Assembly: GCA_000934665.2 (NCBI GenBank)
Contig: JYFJ02000135.1
Span: forward strand, 1-64,000
Origin: Catajapyx aquilonaris
Taxonomy: Eukaryota
Reading direction: 5' to 3'
DNA length: 64,000 bases
The position numbers and the translations under genes were made by a program. This document shows, piece by piece, positions 3,001 to 63,998 of this stretch. The notes beneath the pieces are model-generated. The model was not told the DNA's origin. It was given only the letters and a program-made list of their open reading frames with translations, and searched no databases. Each line of letters opens with the position of its first letter. Positions within the stretch are counted from its first letter, which is position 1.

Positions 3001-6000
3001 GTCGGGAAGTTTTGGGAGCTGTCTGTGAGGTTTAGACCGCAGTCACCGCACTGCTGAAGCTTCCTCGCCTTGGTCTCCTCGGAGGGCACCCATGACCCCC
3101 TCCCCTTTCCTTCCCAAGCCCCAACTCCTTCCTCCCCAGGAGGATTCACCTGCACTATTTATGCCGCCGAGAAGGAGGAAGGCCGCATTTATTATTCACC
3201 CGCTTCGTGGGTGCGTCATGACCGCTTCAAAAAGTGTCGCGTTGAACACGCCTCTTCGTCACCTGCACAGGGTGATATTCAAATCGTTTAACCTCTATAC
3301 CATGTGAAAGCTGAAATTCCGCGCTAATTCTGTTTTGGCCTAAAATGTCTGACAAATGAATTCAGTCGGCCGACATATTACAAAATGTGAGGACACTCCA
3401 CCTGTTATTCCTCCCGAGTCTATGACTATTCACGAGACGTCCTACCCTGTTATAAGAATGACTCGGAAGTGAAATCCGAGATGTGCCCTGTCGTCCGGAG
3501 CAAGCAAAAGGACCTTTTTGCGGTCTGGCCAAACTGCCTACCTGTCGTGCCTGGGAGGAAAGGTGACCTCCTGGACTTCTCAGGAAAAGTGTTGCGGTTC
3601 CGAGCAAGCACAGCACTGTCATAAGTCGGACCCCCCTTCGTTTGACACCGGATAAAACCCCGGTCCTTTGCTAATTATCAGCTTGGGAGTCCTCTTGATA
3701 GACAAGGGCCAATCTGTCGGCTCGTTACAGTTCAATTGGAACAGGTTACCTTCATCGAGGACGTGTTTGTGGCCGCTCATTACTCCACTCGGGCCCATCA
3801 TGTATCGCGCGTATTAATTAATACCCGGGTATGCCTGTCCGATGATGCTCAATAATTTATACAGGGGAGGACTCTAGCTTTTCATAGTGCGTTACATCTT
3901 GGCTGTTGGGCAGATAGCTAGCCGGAGCGGAGATTAGGAAAGACGTAATTTCACCTCGCTGCTGCTGGGGGGTTGTTTAATAGTAATGCAGATGAAACGG
4001 GTCGGGTAGACACGCCGGGGCAGTTTTATCCGTCGCATAAAGTCGCAAACTCGGAGTTTACCGGCGACGTACCAAAATTCATGCTGATTAAATTCCCCCC
4101 TCCAACGAGGTGAAAAGTCTGGATTGACCTCGTTTGTAAATTTTCAAAAGGGAGGCTGGGTTGTATTAACATATATGTGGCGAATTATTGATGAAGTTTC
4201 GACACAGCGCAGCGGTTGGAAAAATCCGCGTATTCTGTGGCTAAACTCCCCAATTTGTCTGCAAAGTTGCGGTGCGTGTTGTACAAGAAATTAGTGCATA
4301 ATTAGTACAACCGTCAGGGGAGGTCCTCCCCCACACACCACATACCCGGATGGCACGTATGTTTCAGTTACCACATGTAAGTGCGGTGCGTGTGCTAAGA
4401 ACTGAGCTCCTCACACTTTCCCCCCCTTTTGACATGTACCAAGGGGAGAGTCCAAGGAGAGACATCGTCATTACCTATACATGAAGACAATCTTGACGAG
4501 TCTGTTCATTGTCCAGAAAGGAGTTTAAGGGGGAGGTGAGTCTGGGAGGGTTAGAAGAAGATGAATATAAGAGGAGTCTGCGGTGCCCCGGCTCCATTTC
4601 GACTTGTGTCCGCAGCCCGCCCCCTTGCGGTATGCGGAGTCTTCGGCCCAGGTGACAGCTGGGGTCTAGGACTGGGGACCTAGGACGTCGGGAGGTTGCC
4701 CCCGTCGACAGCCCCCTTCCCCTCAAGCTTCCCGGCTTGGAACCGCACAAGACGGTTTCCTCCACCTCTTCGACTGCACTTATTCAGGGTGTACCTAACA
4801 CTCCAACCCACCCCTCCAGACGAAGATGACGGCATCCCCCTCTCCTTCCCTCCCTCTCAAGATGTACGGGACACTTTTCTTGGTCCGGATGTCGACAGGA
4901 GGCCCTAATTGCTTAAATTTAGTCTAAGAGGTGGTTCATAATTTAGGTTGAAATGTGGACAGTATTTGGCGAATGATGCATAATTCGGCAGGGATTGAGG
5001 AGGGGGGGGGTTCTTCCGCATTAGTTTCGCAGCAGGGTCCTCGACCATCCTTTTCCTGCTCCCAGCTCCACCTGGCTCCCTTCGTCACCTGCAATCCGTC
5101 ACGGCGTCGCCCATTCCACTCTATTGACAAGATTCATTATTCATCCTGGCGAGATATGTGGCCTCTCAGAATGGAGGGAAGGGAAGAATGAAAGAAAAGA
5201 GAGGAGAAAGGATGGAGGGGGTGAAGTCAGGTGTCGGTCCCCGAGCGACAAGAGTCACCATCAAGCAAGAACAATAAGGCGTCTCGCCACAGACACTTCT
5301 ATTTCCCATCAGTCACACGTGGCAGGAGGTCCGCCGTACAGGAGGTTCAATGGAAAGGCCTTTTTCTCCAAATAGGCATCGCGGTGATGACAGGAGAAGG
5401 GACAAAAAATATGAAGCCCGTGTCTGGTCTGGCACCTGCAGGTGAAAGAATAACAATCTGCGGCTGCATACAGTAAATTGTTTGTCCTGCTGCCAACAGA
5501 TGGACCGGGCAGCCACGCCATCTCTGGGAATAAATCAGCTTATTGGTGTCCTGCACAACCTCGTTAAGAGTGGGATTAATGCAGATATTTTTGCACTGTT
5601 TAAGCACATTAAGGAAATCATTGATTGATTCGAGTTATGATGGTTTTAAATTTGATGTTTTAAAGGTTAGCCTGATTTTCATGTCAGAAACTTACGTACT
5701 GTACATTTCTAGGACAATGTTTTTAGCCAAAATGTAACTGATCTACTGCATTTCAGGTTGAACTTCTTGCTCCAAGTAAATAGCACAGGTCATACCAATA
5801 ATGATTCTCACCCTTATTACTATTTTAGCAGCTACGATGCACCACACTAAAGTCAATATTATGCAGTCTACCCGAGAAGTCTCTCCGGAAGCAATGAAAA
5901 ACCTTCCACATAAACAAGTGACTCACCAACCAACAACAATACCATAACTTACCCTCCACAACACACTACACGCATTTCTTCCAACTAAAACATTGCATAA

Positions 6001-23641: not shown

Positions 23642-23713
23642 TCCGGTATGGTCTAGTGGTTAGGATACCCGGCTCTCACCCGGGAGGCCCGGGTTCGATT
23701 CCCGGTACCGGAA
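23642..23713 (+). tRNA. tRNA-Glu (anticodon CTC)
   Basis: 72-nt cloverleaf: acceptor stem TCCGGTA/TACCGGA plus discriminator A, D-arm A-box TGGTCTAGTGG, anticodon stem CCCGG/CCGGG with loop CT-CTC-AC (CTC 23675-23677), T-arm GGTTCGATTCC. No intron, no encoded CCA. Confidence 0.97.
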
Positions 23714-23714
23714 C

Positions 23715-23720: not shown

Positions 23721-25500
23721 ATTTTTCCTTAAATAATATGAATTTAACCCACTCATTACTAATCCATTAGTATATTTGCCATAAATCTACGCAGTACTTG
23801 CCTGATTGCGGTGTAGCATAACCGGCCGTGCAATAAATAAGAAGAAAGTATGCCATTTTTCTGCAGGTGACTTTTTAATATCATGGAGTCCGCTAGATGG
23901 CGGCCATTAATTCCGGGTGAACTAAACCTAAACTCAATTCGCCGCGTCTTAGCCTGTAAATTGCTGCGACAAATCCTAGCCCGTTCGTTACATTTCGGAA
24001 GTGAAAATCCGGTGTAAAATCATGGGAAAGTGTCTCCGGAGTCCCAAGATGGCGACCGGTCACGCTTAACATCCCTCCCGGCTTACTTTACCGTGAAACA
24101 ACATCCATAAATACGCGTCTCATTTTGCAGCTCAACAATCGTCACAAATAATGTGTAGTTCCTGAACCAACCAATATTATTATTACTTTTTTTTTGTGTG
24201 ACCGCGCAGGCGAGAAAAGGTCACTGATCCTGGGCTGTGCTTCATTCCGGGGGTAATACAAGAAATGTTATACGGCCAAACTATACAGGATATAAGGGGG
24301 GGACCTCCGGATAATATGTTGCTCCATCAAGTATATTTCCTCAAAAGAGCGTAGCATTCGACGGTAATGATTAATGGACATGAGATAACCCGCAGTAGCT
24401 TATGTACTAAGTGTTATAATAAATCTTTCCCCTTTCGGAGACTAATGGCTCCTCGGTGGGGAGCCCCATTTCATTGAAAAGAAGCTGCACCAATGTGAGG
24501 ACCCTCCTGCTTGCCCACCCACCCCCTACGTCCCCCTCTTCTGAAATAGATAGAGTAAAAAAAAAAAAGTAAATGCCCAATCCTGTTCAATGACTTCTCG
24601 CTTCGTTCCGGTGGTACTGAAGGAGTTCCGTGAGAATCGTGGGTGTTTACACAACACAACCTGTTATACCGACAAACATTTGGCCCCCTCCACATAATTT
24701 GTTCTGAACAAACATGCCGCTCTGATTTTTTTTCGGCCACTGTTATAGCTACTTAAGTCGTTGCTGACGATGGTACCTGGACATGTCTTCACAAGTTGTG
24801 ATGCAAACTGCTGAGGCCTGCTCTTCCCTGGCTAAAACGCAGGCTTCATTTACTCAAGTCTACCGCAATATATAAAACAAATGAGTAGAGTGGAGGTGCA
24901 TTTAGGCCAGCCAGGTTCCTCCTGAAAAAAGAAACCTAAGTCCAATCCTCCTCTTCTTCCTCCAGCACCAGTGTTAGGGGGAGGGGGGGGCTCATCTCCC
25001 ATTCGTAACGAGCCGGGGACTTTGCATTGCGCCGTTTTAATTGTAGTTAGGTAGGTTTGCGCTAGTGACGCCCGTGTATTAGATTAAGTTATGAAATACG
25101 CCCTCTTGCCGTGCGGTGAAATTAAACGTTAAGTATTATTTACACTGGGGCGGGTGTAGATGGGATCAGGCTCTGCAACCAGATGTGGTGGGATAACCAG
25201 CCAAAAAGAAAAACGAGGCACGTGGCTACAGCTCCCCCGCCAACTCGAATCTCGTTAGCTTTAGTGGCGAATTACGGCCTGGAATTGTCTCCTTTCGCTT
25301 TGACTGAGGAAATTAACTTGTGCTTATACGCCGTTTTGGCAACCTAACCTCCTCCACCCTTTTGTGATGGCCTACCAAGCCTCCTGTGCCTGCCTGGCTC
25401 TGGAGACATTTTCTTTTGGGATGAGGACTGGAGGAAAAATGGACACCACTGAATTATGGGGATTACTGGACACCTGAGTTGGACCAATTAAGTTGGAAGC

Positions 25501-25574
<74 letters not shown>
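25501..25574. repeat. (TAT)n microsatellite, ~24 copies
   Basis: Perfect trinucleotide run; it produces the poly-Ile in track ORF 25372..25641. Confidence 0.97.
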
Positions 25575-28500
25575 GCATGCTCACATGTGTCAATATGTAA
25601 GTCTTGATAGGTAGTAAAAAATTGGTAATGGGTTGGTTCAAGTATTGCGTCGGTGATCAGGCCTCTAATCCTTGTAATGGGGAGGTGGCGATGACGATTA
25701 GTTTAATTACTCTGCCAGAGTAACATGCGTCGTGTTTATGTGGCGTGGCAATATTCATAATTCTCCAAACTGATGTGGATGCAAATGAGAGGGACCGTGG
25801 GTTGGGGAAATTAAGTAGAAAGTTCATCAAAGGAGTGACAATCAACGGGACTCGATCTCGACCGCCGCTTCCAATAGAATTATCAATCATGGTTAGGAAG
25901 GGGGCGGAGGGGAGGGGGAGGGAGGACTTTGGCGGGGGTTGGGAGAGAGAGAGAAAAAAAATTGGGATGGGAGGGTGTGGATTGGGGGGTGGGATTTGTC
26001 ACGCTCATACTCCCCAAATCGTCTGTTCGCCTCCAAATTCAACACTTATTCTGGTTAGCCATGCAAATCGAGTCGATGTTGCACTCTTTTACATTGCTGA
26101 TGAAGACTGATCGATATCGTTTCGATATTTATGCATTATTGGTTGCGTAGGGCTGGTCTGCTGCTCTGCTGCTGTGAAATGAAAATATAAATTGTAATTG
26201 TAAAATGGCTGTGTTAACAGAATTACTAAACACTGCGATCTGAGAAGCCACATCAGTATTGGTTTTAGAACATTACTCAACTTGAATAATAATAATTGTA
26301 CGGACACCGTTCATAGTTCACTTTAGCGGGCCGTTAGAATGCGCTAGGCAACGCTGACGTAATCCTGAGATTTTTCTGAATCCTACGTATGTATTTAATT
26401 GTCACTGATTGTAGGTGTATTATAACTTCATGAAGCTATACAACCGACCTCCAGGCTCATCAAAACTCATCTTCTGAACACAAATCTCAGTTACATTAAA
26501 CGTAAGGAATTTCCATAACCTTTCCTCTCTGGCGTTACTTAGAATACATGTTTATCAAACTCTGGCCTCCACCCCTTAACGCCGCGCTTAAAATCCCACC
26601 TTGGGAATAACTCCTCATTAACGCAATGAACCCGAAACTTTATAAATCTAAAGGGATGGCTAATGGGACACTGGGACCCTTAGCATCGGAACTCAAGACT
26701 TTGGACATTCAAATCCTAGGTCCTGGTAATGTCCCTTACTACAAGCAAACCCAACAATATTTCCACCTTCACGTCACCCATGAAAAATTTCGCCATTTAT
26801 TGGCAACCTCACCCCAGCCAAACTCCTGGGAAAAAAAACCTTCGCTTGAAAATAAAAATGGTTGACGCAGTGTCGACGTGTTATTATACGACATTCAACA
26901 TTGGAACCCCCCGGTGACTCCAAGATCGAGCACCAAGTCGTAAATCATCCGCTCCAAGACGATTAAAATAGACGAAACTTGATCCTGCCTTCAATAATTG
27001 CCCGGATGATCTCTGGGAGTGTTCACTTCCTTTCCCCCCAAACCTTGCGACTCATTTTTCGCGTCTTGAATGGCATAAGAATCGGGCCCAAAGAAAGGGG
27101 AAAAAAATGTATAAAAATGGGGGAGTGAAAAATCGGTTCCTTTTTCCACACGTCTTATTTCCCCCAGCAGTTCGTGTCACAAAAATTAGATATACAATAA
27201 AAATGGTAAGGGTTGGGCCTTAGGATGAGGAATCTGCCAGGTGTCGTCTTCTCACTGTGGGATTAGTGACGGTCGTGGTAGCAGCACACGCCCCCTGGAA
27301 ATTTTGGCACGTCGTCATCAAGATTAAAAGCAAGAAGCGGTTGCTTGTCTGTAATGTTGGCGCTCAATAATGTGATTATTTCCACTTCACGTTGGTGGAT
27401 TTGGAATGGGGGAAGGGGAAGGAGGGGGTTGTTGCAAGGGTGAAATCCATATTATATTGAGTCAGTAAATTTGTGAGGGAGTAAATACTTGAAGGAAGGG
27501 GATCCAGACAGTACAGCGTTGGATTAATTGCGAGGTGACAGTGTTATAACGGAAGTTCATTGCAATGCGATATTGGTTCATTTGGAGTGAATCTTTATGA
27601 ATGTGAAAAATGCATTCGTTGTGAGTGTCAATTAAGAGTAAGCTGCTGGACCTGATCTGAAACTAGTTATTGTTGGCTTAACAATGCGAGTTCAGTTTAT
27701 GCTTGAGCGTTTGAATGATCGTACTCAAGCTTAGAAATCAGATAAAATAATTCACAGTAGCAGATGACATGCGAGAAGAAAATTGTATACTAAAGAAAGT
27801 TATGATGACTCACAATGTTTCAATTGATTTGTTGTGTTGGCATTGTATTCGTAATATGCCGACCTAAAATTCAGTCACGTTTTGATCAAAACTGAGATAG
27901 GCATTGCTTAATGTCGTCCTATAAGTTAGTGTAGGCCTATTTTCCAATGGTCAAGTCAGTTTTCAGATCGAAAAATTGCAGCCTATTAGAGAAATATTGG
28001 AATATAATATTATTCCATGGGGGGAGGGGGAGGGGGGAGATAATTCAATCTTAGAATTGTCCTATCTAGAAATCATTCCGCAAAGTTGATACCGTACTGA
28101 TCATTCTGCATTCAGGTTGTCCCTTCTTTACTGTTTCATTATTCAGGCAAAAATTGTCATTATGAGTTGTCCTTTTATTATATTGCAGTGTCCCACGTCC
28201 GAAAGAGTCACCACGAAGAATAACACACGGAGGATAATAACTTCATGGATGTTTGCAGCAGACTTCCTGACATCCGGTTATGGTATGTCACCAGCAGACA
28301 AGAGTTGGACTTTACATTATACTAACTTCTTTTTAAATGCCTGTTTGTTATATTGCATTGAATACCGCCTATTAATATGTCTTGGCTACATTTGTTAATT
28401 AACTTGGGTCGCCTTCATCTCTGGAGACCTGTCCCATTCCTATAAAATTATCGTTATGTTATTATTACAAATTGTCAAAATCGATAATCGTTTGCAATAT

Positions 28501-36716: not shown

Positions 36717-36975
36717 TGAAGACCTCGGGGGAAGAAAGATCAAGGTCCGCTTTTTGTCAAAAATGAACTAGCCTACATATCTCAGAAGATACTATCACTA
36801 GTGTAGCATAATTATGATTGTTTGGTCGTGGTTGTGGAGTAATGAAAAAAGGTCACAATGGAAGACCCCGAAAGTGGTATTTCCAATGGAACCTTATGGG
36901 CCTTCGAAATTTAAAATTGAAATATCTCAGTTTCACCTGATGTGGATCTTGATCGTTCTTCCCCCGAAGTCTTCA
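36717..36975. repeat. 34-bp imperfect inverted repeat, probable non-autonomous DNA transposon remnant
   Basis: TGAAGACCTCGGGGGAAGAAAGATCAAGGTCCGC (36717-36750) matches the reverse complement of 36942-36975 at 30 of 34 positions. Confidence 0.7.
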
Positions 36976-38989: not shown

Positions 38990-39148
38990 TCTGACTTATT
39001 GCTCCGTATTATTTATTACTACTCTATTTTTGACGAAACCTTCACAAATATTTGCTTCTAAATTTTGTAATCGCAAGAAGATCCACATGTTCTAATCGTT
39101 GGCATCACGATGCTCATAAGTTACTTGGATTTACAAGCCAGAGTTCGC
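38990..39148 (-). other. Putative non-coding terminal (3' UTR) exon of the peptide gene
   Basis: Donor-like AAT|GTAAGC at 39480/39479 after the stop. Strong acceptor tgctttcttcttgcAG| before 39148 with an upstream TTTAAT branch-like site. AATAAA at 39017-39012 on the minus strand. The 3' end is approximate. Confidence 0.4.
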
Positions 39149-39532
39149 CTGCAAGAAGAAAGCACTTGCTATTAAAATTCACACTGATTACGCTGCAACA
39201 AAACGCCACTTTTACACGCCATCAAATACAATTAAATAATTTAGACTCCTTAAGTATTAACAATTTCAAATTAACATTTTCCTTCAATTCAAAGCTTGTG
39301 AGAGTGCAATATGTATATGGATGGATATTAATAAAGATTTTTTTTTGAAAATTAAGTTATAGTTCCTTGGTAGGTTACAGGTTATTTATGAGTTTCTCTC
39401 ACAGATATCTCTAATGAGCATAATGTTTTCACTAGCCTGTCACTAAGGTCACGTAACACTTGTAAAAAGCCCAGCTTACATTTAAACACAGTACCGTAAC
39501 GTACATGATTTCCAGTCGGAAGAAGTTGGAAG

Positions 39533-39609
39533 CTAATCGTAGAAATTATCGCAGAAGTAAACACATCGTCCATCGGAAGGGCTAATTTCGTCACAATTAC
39601 ACCCAAGAA
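39533..39609 (-). CDS. Coding exon 2 of the small secreted peptide (endothelin/apamin-like CxC-x9-CxxxC core)
   Basis: Acceptor ctctcatggttttgcAG| (AG at 39611-39610) closes an 84-nt GT-AG intron. Read in the phase set by exon 1 it gives VLGCNCDEISPSDGRCVYFCDNFYD-TAG, with four Cys. Spliced CDS is 144 nt (47 aa plus stop). Confidence 0.7.
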
Positions 39610-39693
39610 CTGCAAAACCATGAGAGTCGAGAGTTATTTAATGCCACTAATTTTGTCAAGATGGTACAGCACGTAGGAGGTATATCTCCTTAC

Positions 39694-39760
39694 CGGTTGC
39701 ATTAGCCGTGTCCACAAGCAGTAAAACCGCCATCACCAAAAGTAGCAGAGTCTTCATCAT
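39694..39760 (-). CDS. Coding exon 1 of a small secreted cysteine-rich peptide gene (signal peptide)
   Basis: ATG ATG AAG ACT CTG CTA CTT TTG GTG ATG GCG GTT TTA CTG CTT GTG GAC ACG GCT AAT GCA ACC G translates to MMKTLLLLVMAVLLLVDTANAT plus one base. It shows a basic N-region, hydrophobic core and A-N-A cleavage motif. It is followed directly by donor G|GTAAGG (GT at 39693-39692, phase 1) and preceded by a correctly spaced TATA/Inr. Confidence 0.75.
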
Positions 39761-39787
39761 GCTTAGTCCAGTGATGATAACCACTAT

Positions 39788-39822
39788 ACTAAGATGGTCC
39801 GAGCTTCTGTCTCATACTTATA
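39788..39822 (-). promoter_or_regulatory. Core promoter of the peptide gene (TATA box plus arthropod-type initiator)
   Basis: TATAAG at 39822-39817 and TTAGT at 39792-39788. The Inr A (39790) lies 32 nt downstream of the first T of the TATA box and 30 nt upstream of the ATG. Confidence 0.6.
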
Positions 39823-40859
39823 GGCTCTGCTGACGTATATTTTTTAGCCCTTTTTCTGTCGCGTCACATCGCCTTTGTCTCACGTACATAATTCAATCAG
39901 CACCGATTGGTCGAACAGAACAATAGTATTGCCTGCACGAAAGCGACCAATATCGTTATCACGGCGTGTCTCATGTGTCAATGTGACGTCAAGTGCACGA
40001 TATGTCACGCTAATTAGGAGCACGTGCAATTAGTGAACAGGTATGCCCGTCCTTGGAAAGTATCAGAACGATGCCTATCAAGTGGCCATAAAACCGTCAT
40101 AAGTCCTCCATATTCGGCTGGAAAAAAGTGGTGAGTGTCAGCGGCATCGAGTGACGCGTCACCATCAGGGCACCGAGAGAATAACAGCGGAATAAATGAG
40201 AGGAGAAGGTGGGGCTGAAAGGCAGCTTTACGATTCAGCTTCGGCGGATTACAGAGAGCCGTAATAAAGTCTCCATAACTCGTCCTTCTCTGCTTAGGTT
40301 GCCCTATGATTATAACTCGGCCAGGCCTAACTAACTGCGACACCCGAGCCCCTTATTTGGCCAAAACCGAACTTGGTCGGTGACCTGGTTTTGAGGGGGC
40401 CGGCAGCCAGGCAGCAGCACTGCAGCGGAGGTGACGTCACTTGGGCATGGCCGCGAGCTGCCGCCACCTGTTGACATTAATTAAGGAATCCTGACTAACT
40501 GCGACACGCAAGCAAGCGACTTGGAAGAATCACGGTTCTAACTGGTGTGACAGGTTGGCTCAAAACGAAGGGAGAGTGGCATGATTATAGGAGAGGAGGC
40601 CTTAGCTGGATGGAAGGCTGGCTGTTATTGGTACAGTACAGGAAGATGGCCAATCGTCGAACACGTTTGAACTTAAAAATTCTCCCCGTCTATGATGAGG
40701 CATTAAATAAAAATGCTATTTGAAATTAATTTCTTCGCATAGGTATATTATATTCCATGTTGTCGCCCGATATCGATTTTCAATATACAATCATCAAAAT
40801 CGATTTTTGATGCGTCAAATTTCTCCCTATTGCATATCGATAATAATTACATCACGGAA

Positions 40860-41033
40860 AAAGCGATATGCATTTTCCAAAAAAAAAAAATCGATACTCA
40901 TATCCAAAATATTGATATGCAATTTTCAAATCATCTATATGCAATTTTCAAATTATCGACATGTGAATGCCCAAATTATCGATATGTGAATGTCCAAATT
41001 ATCGATGTGTAGATTTTTAAAATATCGAAGAGG
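40860..41033. repeat. Degenerate 22-23 bp tandem repeat (ATCGATATG...CAAATT), interrupted by the SINE
   Basis: Successive units ATTGATATGCAATTTTCAAATC / ATCTATATGCAATTTTCAAATT / ATCGACATGTGAATGCCCAAATT / ATCGATATGTGAATGTCCAAATT / ATCGATGTGTAGATTTTTAAAAT. Confidence 0.75.
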
Positions 41034-41389: not shown

Positions 41390-44300
41390 ATATCGAAGAG
41401 GCATTATTCCGATCTGAACATGTGAGTGACCCTATTTCTTATTTGAGCCACCAGGGCGCTGCCGTTAAGAACATGGCCGCAAGGTGATGCCACCTGTTGG
41501 AATTAATTACGCGTATTGCGACGACCTGGTTCCCATCATAAGAGCTCGCATGCACAACCCTAATAGACGACACTGAAAAATAATCCCCCTCCTCCTCCCT
41601 GAAGCCCCCCAACAATCGGCGTTCTTCTTATGATAAAAAAAAAGAGAAGAAGCAACCCCCTCGGGATCGGAGTTCATCAAGTACCATCCGCAGGCTCCAT
41701 TTCCTCCGACACTCCAGCAAAACGTGGAACAAAAACGGGGGGAAACCTTTGTATGTAATAATCTGCCGAGGCCCCCAAGTTTCGTGACAAATGATTCAAT
41801 AACATGAGAAGGTATTCCGCTACAGCTGACAGGGGTTGACTAATTCTCATTTGTCGTCGGGGAGTTGGGAGCAGGGGGAGGTGTACTGCAGAGAAGCGGT
41901 CCTCCTCCTCCTCCCCCCACCATCACGTGACTGGACGTCATCAGACTTTGAACAGAAAGCACGAATTGTAGGAAGGGAGGAGAAAAAACCAGAAAATATG
42001 GCGGCCTTTTGAAACGTTGATGTATAGGTGTCAGGGTAGAAACGTGTTTTATTCGTTCTGTTCGTGCTGGAGATTGATGCCGCCAATTTTGTAAAATTCT
42101 CCACCTTGCGGTGAGAGATAGAACTACTCTGCTCGACTTTGCTCATATGGCAGTGCCGTGACGAAATTAAGTTCAAAATGTAGAATTCATACCGGTAATT
42201 AATTTTAAAAATTAAAATAGATTTCTCTTAATAAATTGTCAATTCAGTACGCATAAATGGGTACCAAACAGGTACAAAACACCTGATTTGGTTCGAGGTC
42301 ACTGGAATTAAGCACAATGAAGATCAGAATTAGGAAGTAGTGTGTATATGTCGTAGGACCTGATTTTCACACATTTTTTTGTCGCACGAGCATAATAAAC
42401 AGCAAGGTAATAAAACGCGGGGGCTCCCGGCGATCTTTTTGGAAAAGAGGCGACCACACGTGCGTTATAGTCAGAAAAAAGTGATGATAAAAAAAGCTAG
42501 CCGAGAGTGTGGGAGCCGTTAACAAGCCGGCAGGGTTTCCTTGGGGATCTCACCTGGAATCCGGGGAACTCGCCCAGGACTCCCACGCTCACCTGAATGG
42601 ACAACCTGGACTAATTAGCCCTCCCTCACCTACTTGGCACAGTCTTTTTTTGGAATCCTTCCCAGATTTTTGGACCACCTAAAAATGGATGAAAATTTTT
42701 CCATTGAAAATAAAAATTCAGATTGTTCTGAATACGACCTGACAGGTGTTGACTAGACATTTTTTGCTGGCGGGAGTCGCACCTACCTGAAACGTGTCCC
42801 GCATCTGATGTCAAACTGTCGCATCAAATTTGACACTAAAAATGTGATCGGCAGTCCGGTCAAACTCGTTAACTCAGGACAGCAAATGTGACAAGAGTCT
42901 GACGTCGGTTTGTGATTAATTTTGATCACTAGTCCGCGGGTTGTTGGACCTCAATCCTGTTGACTGAAGGTGGTCAGCCAATAATGCAACAATGGCTTCC
43001 CAGTTTCTCTATGGCACAGATGTGTATAAAATAATGATCGCCTGCGAGTAAATCTCTCCCACGCCTTGTGATGAAGAAACATGCGCCATTAAGTTTTCAC
43101 GGTAAGCATGATAAATTCACGTGTTAGCAAAAGCGGAATTATGGCCCGGAGAGGAGACTGTGTCAACACGTGCCACAAGTCACCCATGGTCTTTTCTTCC
43201 CACCCCACCCAAATATAGGCGATGTTGTTATTGAAGCAACACTCCTAGCGCATCCGCTTAGAACCGGTTGTGTCAACTCAAATTATGGGATCTCTAATTC
43301 TATAGATGTTTGAACACAAAAGTCTGGTTGTATCAAAGCAAATTAGTGAAAATCTCCGATTAGTCTACGATCACGATACTGATCCATCTAATCCTGATCC
43401 CGATCATGACATAACAAAATCTGACATTTTTTTAAATTTTTTGCAGTAAATATGAGAATAGATCAAAAATATTCGGTGTGTATTTAAGTGGATAATTACT
43501 GGAAAATTACCCCCGTTTTAAGTGGCAGAAACTGATTCTTTCCTCATGTTGAAATTAACCTACTAGTGCATAACCGGCCCTCTCCAAAAAATGGGCACGT
43601 AACTGGCATCTGACATATGTCGACCTGTACCTGCACTGGAGAAGCTCTGTTTGTGACATGCAAGCGGCCAGGTTAATTAATCAGCCGAGAAATGACACTC
43701 GAAATAAATGACATACAGTAGTTACCCGGAGGCCATCACAAAATTCCCCTGGAAGTTTTTACCTCGTTTCAAAATTTTAGCGGACAGTGCACATAAGGTC
43801 AGTTGCAGATACACATTAGGTGCGTCTTAACTATCTCGTGTTATTAATGAGAGAGGGGGTAATGGTACCCTGAAGGAGCTGCCCTGCACAGGCATTTCAG
43901 GTAGAAGTGGAGGACCAGGTCGGCCACCTTTGAAGATGGTTTTAGGGGGAGGAAGGTGGGCGGGTTTCTCCTTTTGACATGGCGGCCCGCTCAAAAAAGA
44001 CTCATTCCCTGGCTACGGGCTAAGAAAGGACTAGAGAGGCTCTGGCTCTCTCTTCTCTTATTCCCTCATCTTCCCGTTGGTAGCAGAGCACCTCCTCTCC
44101 TGACAGGCCCCTTGGCGTAAATCAATTTTCAATTATACGTTTAGGACTGTATTATATTGCTGTCATTTTCATAAATCACCCCTGGTCACCATAAATTCCG
44201 GAGGACCTTCATGGAAACTGCATACAAAGTAACGCTGGGCAGGAACAAACGCCAGGTTTCCATAAATTTCAGTTCCCCTTGCCTTGGCGTTGGTTTGGGC

Positions 44301-60845: not shown

Positions 60846-63800
60846 TCACACATATTTGCTGCTTAGCTGCTTGGCTAGTTCTGTGTACTTGAGAAACTTG
60901 GAGTGCGGCGACTCCTCAAAGTTGGGCGGCGGGGGCTGGGGACTCTTGCCCGCGGAGGCTGCCGAGGATGAGGTGGAGGAGGCTTTCCCGCCCGGATTCT
61001 GGTTCTTTATGGCCAGGGCGTCAGGGATGGCTCCGTCCTTCACAAAGTGCATTTTGGACAGGTGGTGGCGATAGGCGCCTTTGGAGATGAAGGGGGTGTC
61101 ACAGAACGCGCACTTCATGATGGAGTCCGTCATCACGGCGTCGTTGCAGGCCCAGCTGAAGGCCAGGATGGCCCCCGGTGTCCCCTGGTTGCCGGACGCG
61201 TACGTACCGGAGGTCCCCGGCCGGCTGGCGTGGGACTCGGTCTTGTCGCACAGCTTCTGGAGGGCGGCCAGCGGGTGGCTGCTGCCCTCGGCCGGCGCCC
61301 CGGACAGGTTATCGAACATGGAGGACAGTGCGCTCAGGCTGCTGGCCGCACTGTCCGAAGACGACTTGCCTTTGCTGCTCTTGGGCGGAGGCCCGGGGGA
61401 GGAGGCCGCCGCCGCAGGAGGGGTTGGCTCCGGAGACTCCCGCTTCTTCTCACTTCTGGAAGCACAGGAGAGGTCGGAGCGGTCGCTGGTGGTGCTGGGG
61501 CAGGGGCTGGGGGCCTCCGAGCCGGTCTTGGTCGGGGTGGGCGTCCCGTTGGTCACCCGGTCAGCCGAGGCCGGAGGGGAGGTGGCCACCGGGGAGGTCA
61601 CGGGGGTCGCAGCGTCCTTCCTGTCGTCTGCGTCAGGTACTTTCCCGTCCTCAACCTCGCTTTTGTCTTTGTCGTCACCGTCCACCGACTCCTTGGCTGG
61701 TGACACCGGCGGTGACTCCTTGGGCTCCGACTTGTCGTCCTGGAGGGGGTCAGGGTGGGTGCCGTTGTCTTTCGGCTGGGGGGTGGAGCGGAGCGAGGGC
61801 GGGGGCGGAGGAGAGGACATCTCGGGGGTGGATTTTTCGGAAGGAGGCTTGGAGTCTTTCTTCTGCCTCTGCTGCGGTGGGCTTTTGGGCGAGGAAGGAG
61901 GTGCGCTGGCGGTGCTACCTGCGGGAGAGGTCACGGACTCGGTACCGACGCCGTTCCCGCTGCGAAAGGAGCCCGAGGCAGCGCTGGCGTCACCTTTGAC
62001 CTTGTCCGACATTGCACTGGACTCGCTCCCGCTCCTCTCCCTCTGCTGGTACTGGTAACACCTGAGGAAGTTCATGGTCTGGGGATCGACCAGGGGTTTG
62101 GTGTAGTCCACACTCTCGTCAATGCCCAACCTCTTCAGGATGCTGGATCCGACGGGTGTGCCTCCGAAAGTCTGCCTGGCTCTCGAGTCGAAACTCTTCT
62201 CGATCAGCTTCTCGATGGCGTTCAGTACGGATGGAGATCCCTCCTGATCCCCTGAGCTCCCCTCCCCAGTTCCTCCTCCACTCCCTGTGCTCTTGTGGGA
62301 GCTGTTTGTGCCTTTGCTGCTGCTGCTCTCTTTGGTGGTTCCAGAAGCTGCTTCGGGTGGCGTGGGTCTGCCGTCCGAATGCTCCGATTTGGGCTCCTTC
62401 TTCACCGTGGAATCAGGTGACTCGGCTGGGTCGGCACCGGGGGACATGAGCGCGCTCTTGAGCAGGTTTCTTTGGCTGTTGCCCAAGCACTGTCGAATGT
62501 GGTCGACAAACAAGGGCGTCTCGATCTTGTCCCCGCACTTTTCGCACGTTATCCGACCCGTGTTGTCCTTGGATCCGCTCTTCCCGTCGGTGTTCTTCAG
62601 TTCGTTCTGCGCCCTCTCCAGTTCCAGTAACTTCCTGACAGGAAGAGACTTCTTCCTCTTCTCTCTCGTCTGCCTCCGACGACCCCCGCTCTCGGTGATT
62701 GACCTCATGATGTGCTCTTTGTAGTGAGAGTTCTTGACCATGTGATTGCTCAGTTCTTTGAGGCTGCTGAAGGCCTGGTCGCACACCTTGCAGGTGAGCA
62801 CCGCGCTGACGTGGCTCTGGTTGTTGGTCTTGTCGTCCGCCGAGCGCCAGGAGATGATCTGTTCCTGGGATATGATGTTGGTGTAGTGTTGTGTCTGTTG
62901 CATGTGAGCCGTCATTTCGGCCAGACTCCTGAAGCTTTGTCCGCACCACATGCATTTGAGGATCTGCCGGGTCTGCTCGGCTCCTTTTCCCAGCCAAACG
63001 TCTTGGCCGCGAACCAGTTTCCGAGGCAGGGGCATGGTTTCCTTGATCAGGAGGTTGAGGTCAGGGGAGCTCTTGCTGGAGGTAGAAGGTGCCTGGATGG
63101 ACATGGATGGTGTGGAGTTGGGAGGTTGCGTCTGGTGCGAGGATGAGGAGATGGGGGTACTGGGAGATGAGATGCTGGCGGCGGGGCTGCTCGACGGAGG
63201 GGTCAAGTTGGGCACGCTGACCCCGCAGTGCTTGGCCTCCTTCATGTGCGCCGTCATGGCTGCCAGAGACGGGAAGCTCTGCTTGCACCACACGCACTTG
63301 AGGACGTCCTTGGCCTGCTCTGCCCCCTTGTTCAGCCAGTGGGTCTGCCAGGCACTGGGCCTGCCACCGGCACCCAGGGCGTTCCTGAAGATGTCCGCCG
63401 CGTCCCCTCCCAACCTGCTCAGTTCGGTCATCTTCTCCAAGGCCTTGCTGGCCTCGCTGGGGGTATTCGTTGGGGCTGGGGCGTAAGGTGAGTGGCCGGG
63501 ACTCATCATGCTCTTATCCAGCTTGAGCTTCCCGTTCCAGAGCGGGATCTCTGAACTCTTAGGTGACAGGGAATTGGGGTTGAAAAATGGAAACTGCATG
63601 CCCCAAGGTGACCCCGGCTTGAACGAGGCCGATCCTTGCTCCACGCGGGCAGACTTCTTGGCGGTGGGCCCGTGGTTCTCCCCTCCGATCCTCTTCCGTG
63701 GTACGGACAGGTCCAGAGGGCTGTCCCCTGCGCCAGTGGCTGGAGGTGATGGGCTGCTGGTGTTCTGCGACGATTTGCTGAGGTTGAGTGCGCCACCATC

Positions 63801-63998
63801 GTCGGAGCAGCTCTTCTTCTTCTTGGTGCTGAAGTCCAGCACGGCTTCTGACGCCTCGACCATCAGGTTGTGGGGTGGCGATGGTGTGGTGGTCACCAGC
63901 GGAGAGATGGCTTCTCTGGGCGATGGATGCAGGGGCAGGATGATGCCCCGTGGTGGCACCATCAGGGGGGCCGCGGCACCCATGAGTCCCACTGCTGC
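60846..63998 (-). CDS. tsh/tio: Teashirt/Tiptop family C2H2 zinc-finger transcription factor, large coding exon, 5'-partial
   Basis: 1048+ aa uninterrupted ORF. It has three Tsh-type zinc fingers (KCVWCKQSF..HMKEAKH, KCMWCGQSF..HMQQTQH, TCKVCDQAF..HMVKNSH), a C2HC-like CEKC..HIRQC and a C-terminal finger (KCAFCDTPFISKGAYRHHLSKMH). Also present: CtBP motif PLDLS (63705-63719), conserved blocks PRKLVRGQDVWLGKGAEQTRQILKC and SAWQTHWLNKG, and the C-terminus SKFLKYTELAKQLSSKYV. The track start at 63992 is GTG and the frame stays open to the window edge, so the true start or splice acceptor is upstream or at CAGCAG 63997-63992. Ends in TGA TGA. Confidence 0.97.
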   Translation of the reverse strand, partial: AAVGLMGAAAPLMVPPRGIILPLHPSPREAISPLVTTTPSPPHNLMVEASEAVLDFSTKKKKSCSDDGGALNLSKSSQNTSSPSPPATGAGDSPLDLSVPRKRIGGENHGPTAKKSARVEQGSASFKPGSPWGMQFPFFNPNSLSPKSSEIPLWNGKLKLDKSMMSPGHSPYAPAPTNTPSEASKALEKMTELSRLGGDAADIFRNALGAGGRPSAWQTHWLNKGAEQAKDVLKCVWCKQSFPSLAAMTAHMKEAKHCGVSVPNLTPPSSSPAASISSPSTPISSSSHQTQPPNSTPSMSIQAPSTSSKSSPDLNLLIKETMPLPRKLVRGQDVWLGKGAEQTRQILKCMWCGQSFRSLAEMTAHMQQTQHYTNIISQEQIISWRSADDKTNNQSHVSAVLTCKVCDQAFSSLKELSNHMVKNSHYKEHIMRSITESGGRRRQTREKRKKSLPVRKLLELERAQNELKNTDGKSGSKDNTGRITCEKCGDKIETPLFVDHIRQCLGNSQRNLLKSALMSPGADPAESPDSTVKKEPKSEHSDGRPTPPEAASGTTKESSSSKGTNSSHKSTGSGGGTGEGSSGDQEGSPSVLNAIEKLIEKSFDSRARQTFGGTPVGSSILKRLGIDESVDYTKPLVDPQTMNFLRCYQYQQRERSGSESSAMSDKVKGDASAASGSFRSGNGVGTESVTSPAGSTASAPPSSPKSPPQQRQKKDSKPPSEKSTPEMSSPPPPPSLRSTPQPKDNGTHPDPLQDDKSEPKESPPVSPAKESVDGDDKDKSEVEDGKVPDADDRKDAATPVTSPVATSPPASADRVTNGTPTPTKTGSEAPSPCPSTTSDRSDLSCASRSEKKRESPEPTPPAAAASSPGPPPKSSKGKSSSDSAASSLSALSSMFDNLSGAPAEGSSHPLAALQKLCDKTESHASRPGTSGTYASGNQGTPGAILAFSWACNDAVMTDSIMKCAFCDTPFISKGAYRHHLSKMHFVKDGAIPDALAIKNQNPGGKASSTSSSAASAGKSPQPPPPNFEESPHSKFLKYTELAKQLSSKYV

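Follow-up and report, generated by a model that had tools for sequence, protein, structure and literature searches.

A candidate two-exon gene for a small, acidic, cysteine-rich secreted peptide in the non-coding flank of an arthropod tiptop gene

Introduction

The locus at 39533–39822 on the minus strand of a 64,000-nt stretch of Catajapyx aquilonaris DNA (the whole of which is hereafter called the window) raises the question of whether a series of gene-like signals composes a real gene for a very small secreted peptide or came together by coincidence in non-coding DNA, and, if it is a gene, to which kind of peptide its product would belong. A preliminary description of the window had read the locus as a hidden spliced gene, lying in a teashirt gene desert, for a peptide resembling endothelin or apamin.

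Genes for small secreted cysteine-rich peptides of arthropods encode short precursors, with the signal peptide on an exon of its own and a phase-1 intron by the cleavage site, and their products have an even number of cysteines and often no relatives beyond a narrow lineage. A phase-1 intron right behind the signal peptide is common in small secreted-peptide genes, introns of 60–100 nt are common in arthropods, and TATA-type promoters are usual for tissue-restricted genes. Two groups of two-disulfide peptides invite comparison with the present one. In the endothelins, the first cysteine pairs with the fourth and the second with the third, with a helix across the CxxxC part, and the CCHamide-group receptors of arthropods are related to the ET-type receptors. 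The bee-venom peptides apamin, MCD peptide and tertiapin are basic peptides with an amidated C-terminus, and they are produced from precursors that have a pro-region; the cysteines of MCD peptide have the spacing C-x-C-x9-C-x3-C.

Results

A promoter-like pair, a signal-peptide exon and a cysteine-rich exon on the minus strand

Direct reading of the minus strand finds a TATA-like box, TATAAG, at 39817..39822, and an Inr-like motif, TTAGT, at 39788..39792, which departs by one mismatch from the arthropod consensus TCAGT; the first T of the box and the A of the Inr-like motif, at 39790, are spaced by 32 nt. Transcription would start at this A, leaving a 5′UTR of about 30 nt. Two consecutive ATG codons follow at 39760–39755 (minus strand), with an A at −3, and open the coding part of exon 1 (39694..39760, minus strand), whose 67 nt make up 22 codons plus one base and encode the signal peptide. 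A phase-1 intron of 84 nt is predicted at 39610..39693 (minus strand), one codon past the predicted signal cleavage site, with the donor GTAAGG, the acceptor TTTTGCAG and branch-like motifs (UAAC/CTCAT) 14–31 nt upstream of the AG. Splicing of this intron is suggested by the features that mark a GT-AG intron, namely a GTRAGT-like donor, a pyrimidine-rich tract with a YAG acceptor (here TTTTGCAG) and a frame that stays open through the junction to the stop. The coding part of exon 2 (39533..39609, minus strand) is 77 nt long, supplies 25 codons, counting the one completed across the intron, and ends with the stop codon TAG at 39535–39533 on the same strand.

All of the elements named in the preliminary description, from the TATA and Inr motifs and the ATG through the 22-codon signal-peptide exon and the 84-nt phase-1 intron to exon 2, are thus present on the minus strand at the places given for them, and joining of the exons by coordinate with a script reproduced the 47-residue product that it had claimed, letter for letter.

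Past the stop, no canonical poly(A) signal occurs within 500 nt; a CATAAA variant lies at 39390 (minus strand), 143 nt on, and the first canonical AATAAA at 39012..39017 (minus strand), 516 nt on, which may serve as the poly(A) signal of the peptide gene. The distance to this nearest canonical signal, together with a donor-like GTAAT contained in the G-C-N codons of exon 2, would suit a locus whose exons are real but whose transcript takes another form, with exon 1 joined to a farther acceptor or exon 2 spliced through the internal GTAAT, so that the 47-residue precursor is not the main product. We consider such a transcript very unlikely, as against it no strong acceptor is closer than the one at 84 nt, which yields an in-frame, cysteine-rich and stop-ended exon, an outcome obtained for none of the 419 signal-like loci in the shuffled windows described below.

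The locus lies downstream of tiptop in otherwise gene-poor DNA

A teashirt/tiptop zinc-finger exon of 1050 codons occupies 60846..63998 on the minus strand and is still open at the window end; it is context, outside the peptide gene, and the tiptop stop codon is followed, about 21 kb farther downstream, by the peptide locus, which has the same orientation. Besides tiptop and the peptide locus, a single gene was found in the window, a tRNA-Glu (anticodon CTC; 23642–23714, plus strand; Rfam 67.9 bits). The setting proposed at the outset, a teashirt gene desert, accordingly holds, with the tiptop ORF and the tRNA-Glu found and none of the eight other long ORFs that were tested in the window assigned to a Pfam family. 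The tiptop exon has a GC content of 0.62 and a GC3 of 0.78, against about 0.37–0.50 in the flank. Among the matches listed for the tiptop protein there is no close relative: the best identity was 65%, reached in its conserved part, and its divergent part showed 39–47% identity in matches covering at least about two-thirds. In a quick tree of 21 named proteins picked from the 120 matches listed, the tiptop protein took a long branch that lies outside both the Neoptera (including Hymenoptera) and the Decapoda sampled.

Two other origins of the peptide locus were considered and rejected. A transposon or repeat origin was set aside on finding no tight terminal repeats around the locus and no second copy in the window, and a cluster of paralogues in the window was set aside on a tblastn search of the product against the window, which matched only the locus itself.

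Several repeats were recorded in the surrounding DNA. An A/T-rich inverted repeat of 25 nt, 84% complementary, at 39322–39346 and 40882–40906, brackets the peptide locus together with about 1 kb upstream of it; it is probably a low-complexity chance pairing, and it is possible that it bounds a small mobile element carrying the peptide gene. A tandem array of about five copies of a 23-nt unit, matching at 78–81%, occupies 40903–41028, about 1.1 kb upstream of the peptide promoter. A direct repeat of 38 nt with 84% identity, at 40446–40483 and 41472–41509 (1,026 nt apart), contains a TTAATTA core like a homeodomain site and might be either a duplication of regulatory DNA or an element's two ends. 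Farther off, an inverted repeat of 45 nt at 36717–36761 and 36931–36975, 80% complementary with 169 nt between its arms, resembles a MITE or a long hairpin, and a CTG-type repeat at 25497–25598 (plus strand), which has a long poly-Leu reading, gave a weak tblastn match to the signal peptide.

The complete model is rare in shuffled sequence, and parts of it are not

The gene reading has to be weighed against a chance line-up in the AT-rich non-coding 3′ flank of tiptop, in which a GT...AG pair happens to fall between an ATG-led hydrophobic frame and a short frame with cysteines, with neither transcription nor translation. As controls, the window was shuffled by an order-2 Markov model, which does not mimic real non-coding DNA, and all chance rules were written post hoc, with the locus already seen, so the figures that follow are optimistic. 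The full two-exon model was defined by a GTRAG donor close to where the signal peptide would be cut, a pyrimidine-rich YAG acceptor 50–500 nt downstream, and a mature part of 15–60 residues with 4, 6 or 8 cysteines followed by a stop.

Under a strict signal-peptide rule, one locus passed in the real window, as against only four passing ORFs in 200 shuffles, and the full cysteine-rich model was completed in none of the 200 shuffled windows. A loose rule admitted 419 signal-like loci in 400 shuffles, not one of which could be completed to the full model; three signal-like loci passed it in the real window, where the peptide locus alone could be completed, and none in the reversed window. The two other ATG-led frames admitted by the loose rule in the real window, at 218 (plus strand) and 50765 (minus strand), have 26 and 27 codons, could not be completed, and were taken as chance. 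The promoter rule, which asked for TATAWR followed 26–37 nt on by an Inr-like TYAKT upstream of an ATG, was passed by 24 of the 2,209 ATGs in the window (about 1.1%), four of them at the peptide locus. What these results hold against chance is that the signal-peptide, two-exon and promoter features are independent of one another and all point in the same direction.

Other measurements lean towards chance. A six-frame translation of the window contains the pattern C-x-C-x(6–11)-C-x3-C two times, so the cysteine spacing by itself is not rare; besides the peptide locus it is found at 5390–5440 (minus strand) alone, where neither a signal peptide nor a start lies close by. The open frames of 34 and 51 codons in which the exons lie have local chance probabilities of about 0.11 and 0.035, and the peptide coding sequence has a GC content of 0.44, close to the local non-coding level, and a GC3 of 0.48, near the non-coding level as well, compared with the 0.78 of the tiptop exon. 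Moreover, the locus is the best-looking pick from 128 kb of two-strand sequence, chosen before the rules were written, and very many windows were scanned, and therefore rare coincidences are to be expected somewhere. Taking both sides together, we judge chance to be an unlikely account of the locus, though one that keeps appreciable weight as the main rival of the gene reading.

A short precursor with a predicted signal peptide and an acidic product

The precursor has 47 residues, of which residues 1–21 form the predicted signal peptide, with Lys3 in the n-region, 12 uninterrupted hydrophobic residues and A-N-A at residues 19–21. Judged by rule, these are the features of a eukaryotic signal peptide: a positive n-region, a core within 7–15 residues and small residues at −3 and −1. 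Cleavage is predicted after Ala21 (A-N-A/T), and a cut after V-L-G would be a weaker alternative. The cysteine peptide starts 1–5 residues past the predicted signal cleavage and ends at the stop codon; exon 2 supplies the framework C-x-C-x9-C-x3-C and then a five-residue tail, D-N-F-Y-D, ahead of the stop. The 22-residue form is acidic, as had been claimed for it, with four Asp, one Glu and one Arg, besides four Cys and no Lys, and the charge of the mature peptide at pH 7 is about −4.3 to −4.6 (about −4.3 for the 22-residue form). No pro-region, dibasic site or C-terminal Gly for amidation is present in the 47 residues.

In precursor, exon and intron layout, the candidate is like the small secreted cysteine-rich peptides of arthropods in general, from which it differs in being acidic, very short and not assignable to any family. 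An AlphaFold2 single-sequence model was obtained for the 34-residue frame of exon 2, nine residues of which are intron-encoded; it is of low confidence (mean pLDDT 71, pTM 0.30) and contains a beta-hairpin, with strands at query residues 13–18 and 25–29, and no helix, so that the cystine-stabilised helix proposed in the preliminary description was not confirmed. A Foldseek search of this model against the PDB returned no matches at E ≤ 10.

Homologue searches

The same 34-residue frame was compared by HMMER with 1,835,955,588 representative sequences, and only two matches were returned at E ≤ 0.001, both of which were judged spurious, being repetitive translations that aligned mainly to the intron-encoded residues. 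A word search with the exon-1 frame against proteins of 28–90 residues found no shared words, two degenerate back-translated DNA patterns had no match in metagenome contigs (both did pick out the peptide locus when run on the window as a positive control), an ESM Atlas search with the peptide part gave no usable match, and no occurrence of 6-residue strings from the peptide was found in the literature. The blanks drawn by the HMMER, word and metagenome-pattern searches are what a chance line-up would give. Little can be drawn from them, since assemblies seldom have peptides of 47 residues called in them, and with exons of a length that most searches cannot handle, the absence of homologues is weak as evidence.

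The endothelin likeness is limited to the cysteine framework and a few residues

The preliminary description had left room for the peptide being distantly related to endothelin, and profile searches return this family and no other: Endothelin (PF00322) was the sole Pfam family at E ≤ 10, with an E-value of 0.055 and 13.4 bits against a gathering cut-off of 20.5, and sarafotoxin-m was the sole PDB sequence matched at E ≤ 10, with an E-value of 1.5 and 8 identities in 16 aligned columns across one 2-residue gap. The endothelin likeness is therefore the best that any library offers, and it is non-significant.

As far as the portions of PMC8859281 drawn on here describe it, the endothelin framework is Cys1-X-Cys3...Cys11-XXX-Cys15, with seven residues from Cys3 to Cys11; Asp8, Lys9, Glu10 and Phe14 are conserved, and His16, Asp18, Ile20 and Trp21 form an invariant tail, of which Trp21 occupies the bottom of the receptor pocket and is needed for binding to the receptor, extended or altered tails being poor binders. 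Measured against this description, the peptide is like endothelin and sarafotoxin in its CxC...Cx3C arrangement, in the Asp three residues before the third cysteine, in V-Y-F within the CxxxC part, which includes the Phe14 equivalent (PMC8859281), and in a mature length of about 21–26 residues. Its loop has nine residues rather than seven, and the HMMER alignment needs a 2-residue gap to accommodate it; two of the four conserved residues are kept (Asp and Phe), whereas Gly and Arg stand at the equivalents of Lys9 and Glu10; and none of the four invariant tail residues is present (PMC8859281). The likenesses claimed beforehand (CxC, the Asp before the third cysteine and C-V-Y-F-C) were accordingly all read in the sequence, as were the stated differences, a loop of nine rather than seven residues and no Trp. 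The suggestion of a distant relationship is not supported, because the residues that define the family and its C-terminal tail are absent and the score of 13.4 bits is below the cut-off of 20.5.

The precursors differ as well. Endothelins are described as cut from large precursors by convertases and endothelin-converting enzyme (PMC13311285), whereas the present peptide lies directly behind its signal peptide, ends at the stop codon, and has neither a pro-region nor convertase sites. In addition, the portions of the same source that bear on distribution describe endothelin as deuterostome-specific and report no venom mimic outside Atractaspis (PMC13311285), and the two sources, to the same extent, treat the family as restricted to chordates (PMC13311285, PMC8859281), while the source of the peptide is an arthropod. 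A genuine arthropod endothelin/sarafotoxin-type peptide, be it an ancient relative pairing with ET-related receptors of its own, of the CCHamide group, or an independent mimic directed at the ET-type receptors of vertebrates, is what the sole Pfam and PDB matches and the shared CxC, Asp and C-V-Y-F-C would recommend; given the score, the loop, the substitutions, the missing tail, the precursor and the described distribution, we hold it to be highly improbable. Judged on its residues, the peptide has the CxC/CxxxC framework in common with endothelin, may have its cystine-stabilised framework as well, and is not a member of the endothelin family.

The bee-venom likeness is confined to the cysteine framework

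With apamin, MCD peptide and tertiapin, the peptide has in common two disulfides, predicted in its own case, the C-x-C element first and the C-x3-C element second, an arthropod origin and, in the case of MCD peptide, the same cysteine spacing, and it is this framework alone that would recommend a relative of that group, a K+-channel-blocking venom peptide. In the other respects it is their opposite: its net charge is about −4.5 where the bee peptides are strongly basic, it has no C-terminal Gly for amidation where they are amidated, and it has no pro-region where they have one. No match to apamin, MCD peptide or tertiapin was returned from Pfam or the PDB at E ≤ 10, in library searches rather than direct alignments, and the organism falls outside the neopteran insects sampled in the quick tiptop tree, Hymenoptera among them, on a long branch. 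Such a relationship is, in our estimate, the least credible of the explanations considered.

Discussion

Based on this analysis, we favour, with moderate confidence, the reading of the locus as a genuine gene, unannotated and restricted to its lineage, whose two coding exons specify a secretory precursor of 47 residues. The support for this gene model is intrinsic to the sequence and consists of the promoter-like pair, the context of the start codon, a canonical signal peptide, good splice sites and the stop-closed cysteine-rich exon. Further points in its favour are that the one Pfam match falls in a family of small disulfide-bonded peptide hormones, that the locus is not accounted for by any repeat or TE structure, and that an AATAAA follows 516 nt past the stop. 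Transcription would begin near 39790 from a TATA-type promoter, and the 84-nt intron would be removed from the transcript; the precursor would then be directed into the ER, where signal peptidase would cut after Ala21 and two disulfides would form, and an acidic peptide of 26 or 22 residues would be released with no further processing.

As to its role, the product of such a gene looks like a directly secreted effector of the gland, haemolymph or defence type (toxin-like, immune or semiochemical) rather than a neuropeptide derived from a prohormone, and this preference is drawn because the precursor has no pro-region, dibasic sites or amidation signal.

If the locus is not expressed, it would be a useful warning of how convincing chance gene models can look. 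If the endothelin-type reading, doubtful as it is, were true, a ligand of this type would no longer be confined to chordates and the venom of Atractaspis. Since the peptide is short and has a simple two-disulfide framework, it can be synthesised, and its sub-threshold likeness to endothelin offers an inexpensive experiment on whether the V-Y-F core, lacking the Trp tail, can adopt an endothelin-like fold and make contact with ET- or CCHamide-type receptors. If the locus is expressed, it would add another very small secreted-peptide gene to those missed by ORF- and homology-based annotation, and it would place a peptide gene within DNA that is normally seen as purely regulatory around a developmental gene.
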